DNA of 64,000 bases from Squalus acanthias. Its lineage: Eukaryota. The stretch is from NCBI GenBank assembly GCA_030390025.1, contig JASTWF010000333.1, positions 310,001 to 374,000 of the forward strand. Reading direction: 5' to 3'. The notes beneath the pieces were generated by a model. The model saw nothing but the letters and a program-made list of their open reading frames with translations. It did not search any database and was not told the DNA's origin. This document shows, piece after piece, positions 51,881 through 53,603 of the stretch (the stretch's first letter is position 1; each line of letters opens with the position of its first letter). The position numbers and the translations under genes are program-made.

Positions 51881-53603
51881 TGTAGAATTCGCAATATATC
51901 GCGATTTGATTAATAAGGAGAAAACACAAAGTTTCGTTCGGGCGGCTTTTGTTTCGGCGGAGTGCTGGCGGGTTTGGATTGGACGCGGGCGGCCTGTGGG
52001 GTGGCCGCCGCGCCTCGTGGCGGAACATTCTGGACTTTTCGGCGGGCGGACGGGGTGGCGTTCCGTTGGGCATTTGTGCGGGATCGGTGACGATTCAGCG
52101 CGGTGGGGATGGTGCACGGGGCATTATGGGTTTGCGGTGTAGGCGTGGATGCTGGAATCGGTCTCCCGGGTGCAGGGGAGGGCCGTTGTACCGAGTGGTC
52201 GGGGGCCCATCCAGGGGACATTGGTGTGTGGGGTCCCGGCGGCTCTGCGATGAGAGAGCCGTTGGCGGGTGGTTGTACGGGACACTTGGGGGCCCCGGGC
52301 CCCTCCGGGGAGAACGCCGACCGATTTGACGGTGGGAGAGGTGTTGGCAGGTGCTCGGACATTTATGAGTGGCCCCGGGGCCCATTGAGAACGGAGATCG
52401 CCCGTGCGGGACGTTTGGGCGCTGGGCCCTGGGCAGGGGGGTGGACATTGTGGTTGGGCGGGAAACGGAAGATTTTTGCGCTATGGTTGCAGGCTCCAAA
52501 CCGTCCATTCTCTCTCTTGCTCTTGCATTCGCTCGCTTGCTCCTGTGTTTTTATCCGGTCGATTCGTAACCTCGTGGCTGCTCCTGTGTACTCGTGGTTG
52601 GGCTTCGGCTTGCCTGTTGCCTCTTCTGAGGGGACTGTTGGACTTTCTGGTCCGTTCGGGTCTGCCTCGTGTCGCGTGGCGAGGACCTATGTTGGTGGCT
52701 GGCGGCGGAACCAAAGGCCCGAGATGAGATGAGATGGGATGAGATGAGATGAGAAGAGAGGAGGACCGTGTCCATCGCCACGGTCAGTGAATCCCGACCG
52801 CGCCTGTAGGTCGATCAGCCAAGTTTTCCTCGCCAGGAAGATTTCTATTTTGAACTTTTAACAAAACATATTGCATCGACGATAACGGGACTGTGTCCAA
52901 GGAGATTGGAACGTGAAAACACATCGTATCGATGATATTGACAACTGTGCTCCAAGAGTACCTGTTAAACCAACCAACACAGGTCTTCATCACAGCAGAC
53001 GGTCCAGCCTGCTAGCCGGAGCAGCAGAAGCAAGTAAACAAGTGGGACCAGGAGATCTCCTGACCGACACGTGGGTGCTGCGGTGAAAAACATCCGATCA
53101 GCTATTCGGAATTTCTCCGAGTTATCACGAGTGGTGAGCATGAGTCTCGAGATCCTACGAAGCTAGTTTAGGATAGATATTGATAGGGGAGGGTTTAAGG
53201 ATTAAGGATATTTGTAATGTGTGCCCCTATTTACTTTGTGCCGTTCGTTCCTCGTTTCCCTAAGATCGACTATATAACTGTTTGTAAGATTGTACTGTCA
53301 TTAATCTGTGCTTATGACATGTATTTCATAATCTTAAGTATCATGCAATAAAGATTTTCCATTTCGTACCATTCAAACCAAGTCTACATGAGTTTTATCT
53401 CCATTACTGCTCTCGCATCTAAGTCCAGTGTCTAGAACCGTAAGGGAGAGTGATTCGAACCACTCACAGGTGTGTCTAGTGTTCCCAGACTGGCTGGAGA
53501 CCAGAACAGGCAACCAGGCCTAGACCCGCACTGACATACAGGCTGCACAGAGCCGCGTGAATCTCACAGGCTGCGAGACACGCAGGGTCAAGAATCCCTT
53601 ACA
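51881..53603 (+). repeat. 3' LTR, A-to-G hypermutated over 51940-52789
   Basis: Same length as the 5' LTR with no visible indels; preceded by a purine tract; differs almost only by A/G in its 5' half. Confidence 0.95.

Follow-up and report, generated by a model that had tools for sequence, protein, structure and literature searches.

An ADAR-like A-to-G burst in one long terminal repeat of a Squalus acanthias endogenous retrovirus, and its recurrence within the family

How can the two long terminal repeats (LTRs) of a single provirus come to differ at 150 positions, nearly all of one kind and all but one lying in the same block? The question is raised by an endogenous retrovirus of Squalus acanthias, found in a stretch of 64,000 nucleotides (the window; contig JASTWF010000333.1, positions 310,001 to 374,000) on an unplaced contig of the 3.7-Gb genome. 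Its LTRs occupy 44057-45779 (5') and 51881-53603 (3'), both on the plus strand; each is 1723 bp long with TG...CA ends, and they form a direct repeat that can be compared without gaps at an offset of 7824 bases. At 147 of the 150 sites the 5' LTR has A and the 3' LTR has G; the other differences are T>C at LTR position 380, C>T at 543 and G>A at 1711. An earlier, sequence-only reading of the window took this for the trace of RNA editing by ADAR. The burst is real and ADAR-like; what needs explaining is its presence in one LTR only.

The A>G changes run along the sense strand from LTR 60 to LTR 909, which is 51940 to 52789 of the window, and correspond to 44116-44965 of the 5' LTR. They affect 147 of the 256 As of this tract (57%) and 128 of the 198 As between LTR 60 and 620 (65%), with no A>C or A>T changes; none of the 22 As of LTR 1-50 is changed, and LTR 910-1723 holds a single difference. 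A makes up 30.1% of the tract in the 5' LTR against 12.8% in the 3' LTR, and 28% of both LTRs elsewhere, while the GC content of the tract rises from 45.9% to 63.2% and its CpG count from 37 to 75. One unit of a GAGAT repeat has become GGGAT in the 3' copy, and AAGATGGCG of the 5' LTR reads GGGGTGGCG there. Such a bias towards one type of change and one strand (147/150) far exceeds chance, and the clustering of the changes, with a large share of the As replaced over hundreds of bases, is that of an A>G hypermutation footprint. The figures that the sequence-only reading had reached by hand survive recounting, namely gapless 1723-bp LTRs, some 145-150 A/G positions in about 850 bp with the limits given above, 125 altered As out of 190 in the first 540 bp (exact), two C/T differences within the tract and one difference beyond it, an A content of about 30% against about 12%, and the two altered motifs. 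So does the placement in U3: the sense TATA box at 45447-45452 (LTR 1391), which marks the end of U3, and a sense AATAAA at 45523-45528 (LTR 1467), close to the R/U5 border, both assigned by motif position, put R and U5 far downstream.

Outside the LTRs the picture is different. The 1481 bp upstream of the 3' LTR show no A>G change relative to any of the four closest relatives, and the 1481 bp downstream of the 5' LTR show 0-5, not above other transitions. The loss of As has, as a side effect, created open reading frames (ORFs) of 107-209 aa in the 3' LTR; the unedited LTR has no ORF of 70 aa or more on either strand. Edits aside, the window pair differs at three positions, against 0-2 (mean 0.67) in nine young unedited pairs, an excess (Poisson p 0.03) that we judged too weak to use. 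The unedited U3 (44116-44965) has a CpG observed/expected ratio of 0.83, high for a vertebrate repeat and consistent with very recent insertion or with weak methylation decay.

The direction of the change was read from per-site counts rather than from a consensus. Across 29 other genomic LTRs that are 99-100% identical to the 5' LTR, 11 of the 4263 cells at the 147 sites hold G; among the 147 Gs, 3, 6 and 11 recur in unedited LTRs of diverged sublineages. Because G is nearly absent from the 29 relatives and so few Gs are shared with diverged unedited LTRs, A is the ancestral state at these sites; the G-rich family that would have reversed the proposed polarity does not exist among these copies. 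LTR 380 behaves in the opposite way, its T being private to the 5' LTR and the only private base of that LTR.

Whether an A was changed depended strongly on its 5' neighbour: 79% of As were changed after T, 75% after A, 63% after C and 20% after G. Over the whole tract this amounts to 14 of 71 As following G and 133 of 185 others, and between LTR 60 and 620 to 10 of 44 against 118 of 154 (Fisher p 1e-10). The avoidance of 5' G had been proposed from a partial count over 44116-44400 (6 of 19 against 64 of 80), which proved exact, and it holds in the full count. For the 3' neighbour the values are A 69%, G 62%, C 50% and T 45%, with a mean of 57%. A published ADAR motif has 5' G depleted, 5' U or A preferred and 3' G enriched (as given in an excerpt of PMC5663115), and the 5' neighbour pattern matches it. 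The order T and A, then C, then G was found in all six LTR groups tested, with C and G tied at 14-15% in one, and 5' G was lowest (2-20%) in three pairs tested directly in which only one LTR is edited. The host encodes ADAR-family deaminases, exons matching PF02137 (A_deamin) above the cut-off being present at five genomic loci at least.

These observations bear on the opposite polarity, in which a G-rich LTR would be ancestral and the 5' LTR, together with the abundant family, would have been changed from G to A by an APOBEC-type cytidine deaminase. Retroviral hypermutation is usually of the G-to-A type, and some other LTRs of the family are G-rich too. However, the 5' LTR is 99-100% identical to 29 copies, diverged unedited LTRs also carry A, the G-rich LTRs disagree on which sites are G, and the changes depend on the 5' neighbour, whereas APOBEC context rules use the 3' neighbour. 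We regard this reversal as having next to no chance of being correct. APOBEC3 hypermutation, recognizable by plus-strand G>A in a 3'-neighbour context, was likewise rejected on finding A>G with 5'-neighbour dependence, so that the earlier dismissal of an APOBEC footprint stands.

The window event does not stand alone: at least eight are counted in the family, in a genome that holds about 3,500 first-look candidates for LTR copies. Other edited LTRs were located by a genome search with the G-rich tract and by further searches; 22 LTRs were aligned, and A>G changes were counted in LTR 20-1000 against the window 5' LTR. Both LTRs are edited in the proviruses at C11 (90 changes), C3 (50), C2561 (42) and C3627 (about 70), and three LTRs of a tandem array at C22 share 129 identical edits. 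Provirus A of C37 has 49 changes in its 3' LTR and five in its 5' LTR, a burst in the 3' LTR only; the provirus at C3267 shows the converse, with 94 in the 5' LTR and 12 in the 3' LTR, a burst in the 5' LTR only. Solo LTRs at C7, C4 and C24 carry 41, 45 and 14 changes. Thus, in eight proviruses examined, five have the burst in all of their LTRs, two (the window included) in the 3' LTR only and one in the 5' LTR only. Clean 4-bp duplications flank the solo LTRs at C7 and C24 and provirus A of C37 (CTCT); the duplication is ambiguous at the C4 solo LTR, and at C3267 three of four bases match, inside a host tandem repeat that runs across the site.

Since the edit sets are non-nested and lie on different lineage backgrounds, we count the bursts as independent; there are at least eight, apparently independent, on one and the same stretch of U3. 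Heavy edit sets overlap more than a neighbour-only model predicts, an excess that we attribute to a finer site preference, possibly with some shared descent in one sublineage. The left edge falls between LTR 29 and 61 in all groups, and the right edge ranges from about 400 to about 1090. The 29 unedited copies have 0-4 A>G changes each, not above other transitions: bursts are all-or-none, and nothing points to a slow accumulation of changes. T>C changes number 1 to 29 per LTR among the 22 aligned and never cluster. The record is thus one of the sense strand alone, which is what reverse transcription of viral RNA would leave. Identical edits across all LTRs of a provirus, as seen in five, are what RNA-level editing followed by reverse transcription predicts. 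No edit pattern recurs at a second locus of the assembly, in genome searches covering both the concordant cases (all LTRs edited) and the discordant ones (one LTR edited). This hints, in the few cases at hand, that edited LTRs are dead ends and that editing is restrictive.

Which model, then, accounts for a burst in a single LTR? The U3 of both LTRs of a retrovirus is copied from the one U3 that the RNA carries near its 3' end, and one edited RNA should therefore yield two edited LTRs. The sequence-only reading had the genomic RNA hyper-edited as double-stranded RNA, reverse transcribed and integrated. This proposal does well with the ADAR signature (both the spectrum and the neighbour rule) and with the five concordant proviruses, and fails in that it predicts the same Gs in both LTRs: the 5' LTR should bear the same 147 Gs and bears none, in a provirus that is a single insertion with a 4-bp duplication. 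Likewise, the statement that the change is confined to the 3' LTR is true of the window copy and is left unexplained by the mechanism offered for it. That one hyper-edited genomic RNA, reverse transcribed and integrated, suffices for the window provirus is accordingly most improbable. Ordinary retroviral copying cannot account for the single-LTR change here, and an extra step, involving a second template or recombination, is needed in this provirus and in the two others with one edited LTR.

Uninterrupted paralogous copies of the host repeat into which the provirus inserted served as empty-site controls, and in six of six the two flanks abut with a 4-bp overlap, identifying TGCT at 44053-44056 and 53604-53607 as the left and right copies of the target-site duplication. 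The contiguity of the flanks in these copies makes the provirus one true insertion, and the TGCT overlap is not what an ectopic crossover between proviruses, or a contig that joins two loci, would leave. A chimeric provirus was also considered and rejected: for both 1481-bp segments beside the LTRs, the nearest sequence is one and the same full-length provirus (C6; 99.8%), with no sign of a mosaic interior.

The explanation that we favor, at a probability of roughly 0.6, is that the G-rich 3' LTR is a DNA copy of the U3 of an ADAR-hyper-edited sense RNA. About 850 nt of sense U3 RNA (LTR 60-909) would have paired with complementary RNA, ADAR would have hyper-edited the paired U3, and reverse transcriptase would have read the inosines as G, the process being repeated in the retrovirus family. 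A further step would have joined edited and unedited U3. One could envision several routes. A particle with one edited and one unedited RNA may have undergone intermolecular plus-strand transfer or displaced-strand assimilation; edited cDNA may have converted one LTR of a resident provirus; or ectopic gene conversion may have overwritten one of two edited LTRs with an unedited copy. In a discordant provirus, either the two LTRs had separate templates or one of them was altered at a later time; a fourth and less likely route is editing in place, on an R-loop or through RNA-templated repair. LTR gene conversion is described as common in humans (PMC4921805). In provirus A of C37 and in the C3267 provirus, the edited LTR carries an extra tandem unit of 41-48 nt that is missing from its partner, a hint that the edited LTR was copied in a separate event. 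More generally, this CT-rich unit (LTR 630-700, 44686-44760) varies in copy number and type among sublineages, besides differing between the LTRs of these two discordant proviruses; a (GAGAT)n run at 44899-44930 varies by one unit. Two variants involving other strands were rejected. ADAR acting on the DNA strand of an RNA:minus-DNA hybrid would yield plus-strand T>C, which is not seen, and the displaced-minus-strand route of APOBEC3 yields G>A in the 3' LTR only, unlike the A>G found here in either LTR.

What could the complementary RNA have been? An antisense LTR transcript is the partner that we propose. TTTATT at 44124-44129, a minus-strand AATAAA (LTR 68-73) at the left edge of the edited tract, is the sole antisense AATAAA of the whole LTR. 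Cleavage 10-30 nt past the hexamer would end an antisense RNA at about LTR 38-58, where editing stops in all events, and such a transcript, with its fixed end and variable starts, would account for a constant left edge and a variable right edge. The chance of a sole hexamer landing in a 40-nt span of the 1723 bp is about 2%. The A within the antisense hexamer is changed in most edited LTRs. As a separate observation, a full-length provirus lies inverted within the provirus with the 3'-only burst at C37:14001-44000, with a third, inverted LTR just downstream; a transcript across this region would fold as a very long double-stranded RNA. Folding of LTR 1-1044 gave local stems only, and in a reverse-strand BLAST of LTR 1-1000 against the window and the full-length internal region, no match exceeded 23 nt.

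Several points weigh against the favored explanation. U3 has no long inverted repeat in the LTR, the provirus, the full-length form or the window, and the antisense partner is suggested by one hexamer, spotted post hoc. The published 3' G enrichment is seen weakly here, G lying above the mean without being the top neighbor. Intermolecular plus-strand transfer is reportedly rare in the retroviruses studied, yet three of eight proviruses are discordant here; conversion of the tract in a 5' LTR would have just 59 bp of homology on its left side; and the assembly holds no second LTR with the same edits for any discordant case, hence no donor or partner. The contigs that carry the three discordant proviruses (C2595, C37 and C3267) are all unplaced. 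The public runs listed each contained 11% of the tract's words at most, and no RNA run was among the matches. Contigs of runs X12, X1, X3 and X7 gave near-zero cover of 52096-52443, neither supporting nor contradicting the G-rich LTR. The only cover from a read set consists of two short X12 contigs over 52243-52320, matching at 95% or more with three differences each, among them G>A at two edited sites; a related, non-identical G-rich LTR is thus present in another data set.

An alternative is an artefact of assembly or sequencing, the two LTRs being truly alike and the contig mixing loci or carrying a chemistry error. Raw-read support is lacking and the contigs are unplaced, as just described, but both flanks come from one locus and the edited tract ends only 814 bp from the right flank. 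Moreover, the edited LTRs of all three discordant cases are singletons in the assembly, so that there was nothing to borrow from; the G-rich state is reproducible, in three identical LTRs at C22 and in pairs at C11, C3, C2561 and C3627; and the 5' LTR, with its private T at 380, cannot be a family average produced by polishing. We consider an artefact quite unlikely.

Hypermutation by reverse transcriptase in biased nucleotide pools is known in vitro, and a skewed pool might have led to the incorporation of G opposite T during plus-strand synthesis of one LTR. Misincorporations in plus strong-stop DNA would affect the 5' LTR, and those made in the final plus-strand segment the 3' LTR, with no need for a second template. 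Synthesis, however, begins at LTR 1, which is hard to reconcile with a segment free of changes at 1-50, 65% of As changed at 60-620 and none past 909. Nor would such errors be expected to recur with the same left edge in independent events or to obey the strong 5' G avoidance that is the ADAR rule, and the five concordant proviruses would need another cause. A polymerase error of this kind is thus very improbable.

Somewhat more credit is due to the idea that integrated LTR DNA was edited in place, by ADAR deaminating deoxyadenosines of a plus strand hybridized to an antisense transcript (an R-loop) or by break repair from an edited RNA of the same locus. This would directly explain bursts in a single LTR, be it 5' or 3', and the lack of a second LTR with the same pattern. 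In model substrates, ADARs can act on the DNA strand of DNA:RNA hybrids, according to PMC12925331, and concordant proviruses could descend from 3'-edited parents, much as is described for Mtv17 and Mtv23 with APOBEC changes (PMC12548423). On the other hand, changing 57% of the As on one allele demands very efficient DNA editing that escapes repair, and the genome searches turned up no parent sharing the edits of any concordant provirus. The all-or-none distribution of the bursts (0-4 A>G in the 29 unedited copies) and the tandem-unit change, a typical copying error, in the edited LTR of two discordant cases argue weakly in the same direction. Editing in place remains, in our opinion, an unlikely cause.

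It is tempting to speculate further that ADAR-edited viral RNA has repeatedly been written into single LTRs in the germ line, by patching or by strand exchange between co-packaged RNAs. The patching meant here would be cDNA- or RNA-templated and would act on resident copies, alongside the integration of whole proviruses. We hold this broader scenario only tentatively and think the odds are against it. If true, the family would be a natural record of double-stranded RNA editing at an antisense-transcribed segment of U3, and also of the reverse-transcriptase-mediated transfer of RNA edits into chromosomal DNA.

The recognized germ-line footprint of host editing on retroelements is the G-to-A change left by APOBEC. 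ADAR-type A-to-G hypermutation has reportedly been seen in a variant LTR of Rous-associated virus 1 (RAV-1; Felder, 1994), in avian leukosis virus (ALV; Hajjar and Linial, 1995) and in human and simian T-lymphotropic viruses (HTLV-2/STLV-3; Ko, 2012). A>G hypermutation in the U3 of RAV-1 and ALV, with nearly 50% of the As changed, is mentioned in portions of PMC12925331 and PMC8586724, and in bovine leukaemia virus (BLV) a 70-bp stretch of the 3' LTR U3 carried A>G changes in three proviruses analyzed by PCIP-seq (pooled CRISPR inverse PCR sequencing) in 2021, as told in a section of PMC8025556. These cases in exogenous retroviruses resemble the window in being A>G on the sense strand only, in affecting about half of the As and in their location in U3. 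They are, however, somatic or from cell culture, whereas the Squalus acanthias copies are endogenous and part of a genome assembly. The tract measures 850 bp in the window as compared with about 70 bp in BLV, and at least eight events on the same stretch set this family apart; in three of its eight proviruses the burst is in one LTR only, which can be either.

A parallel in outcome is offered by endogenous mouse mammary tumour viruses (MMTV), in which APOBEC3 leaves G>A changes specifically in the 3' LTR, at 2-16 sites, by way of a displaced minus strand; daughter copies with both LTRs like the 3' LTR of the parent are described as well (both in the part of PMC12548423 consulted). There, as in the window, hypermutation of one type around integration splits the LTRs and distorts LTR dating. 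The MMTV changes, though, are G>A and always in the 3' LTR, while ours are A>G, at 45-147 sites, and in one case in the 5' LTR only. Ectopic gene conversion between LTRs likewise produces LTRs of differing history and patchwork LTRs (extract of PMC4921805), but it moves existing sequence and creates no A>G burst, and so could explain the asymmetry only. In the literature searched, no ADAR-type burst fixed in an endogenous retrovirus was described, a 2015 review on RNA editing of retrotransposons lying outside that search; the nearest case is a remark on Mtv61, in an excerpt of PMC12548423, where the context did not fit ADAR. The novelty thus lies in germ-line fixation, in repeated bursts at a single tract, in the length of that tract and in the proviruses with one edited LTR.

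With eight or more bursts in one family, the action of ADAR on a retroelement in or near the germ line becomes countable, and the one-LTR cases report on template mixing or on conversion by cDNA. Ages estimated from LTR divergence would be grossly inflated by such events (8.7% apparent divergence in the window, 0.17% without the burst). Conversion of an A-rich U3 into a CpG-rich one may also alter the silencing or use of the LTR.

A putative primer-binding site beginning with TGG lies five bases past the 5' LTR (45785-45802, plus strand), with no tRNA match assigned, and the C3267 provirus has the same motif behind its 5' LTR; a polypurine-tract-like purine run, AGGAGGGAC, at 51872-51880 (plus strand) abuts the 3' LTR on its upstream side. 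Three long ORFs lie on the plus strand: a 620-aa gag-like ORF containing a single CCHC zinc knuckle (45733-47595), a 351-aa ORF (47689-48744) that spans a deletion junction, as judged by comparison with a full-length form, and an 844-aa env-like ORF (48902-51436) that has an RQRR motif and, at its C-terminus, a hydrophobic anchor. A Pfam search with these three ORFs gave no match, as did a comparison of the env-like ORF with PDB sequences, and the gag and env assignments are made from position and motifs. The full-length relative at C6 has a gag-like ORF of equal length, an env-like ORF and a 1487-aa pol with protease, reverse transcriptase, two RNase H-type domains and integrase, whose nearest solved proteins are Ty3, gammaretroviral reverse transcriptase, and foamy-virus reverse transcriptase and integrase. 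The family thus has the features of a provirus: a TG...CA LTR pair, a target-site duplication, a putative primer-binding site, a polypurine tract and gag, pol and env.

About 3.6 kb of pol are absent from the window copy, its internal region aligning to the full-length internal region only at 112-1959 and 5580-9586. Around the junction (47628-47872), the 351-aa ORF contains heptad-like repeats and has no family match. Two LTR spacings, of about 7.8 kb and about 11.1 kb, recur genome-wide, and the recurrence of the former indicates that the deleted form has itself multiplied: a non-autonomous, pol-deleted derivative was amplified. Copies with the 7.8-kb spacing were noted at C7, C12, C8, C26, C4, C11, C2561 and C3267. 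Apparent tandem arrays of the form LTR-internal-LTR-internal-LTR, with at least three LTRs at regular spacing, occur at C22:50754432-50777280, C6:103907541-103932154, C1170:1058-34079 and C4:81465281-81498001. The host repeat around the provirus (43250-44056 and 53604-54400) is very abundant, with 40 scored matches at 88-93% identity among 11,527 and 14,966 first-look candidates. Within it, upstream of the insertion, 43200-43900 has a GC content of 0.52-0.58 and a G-over-C skew of up to 0.39.

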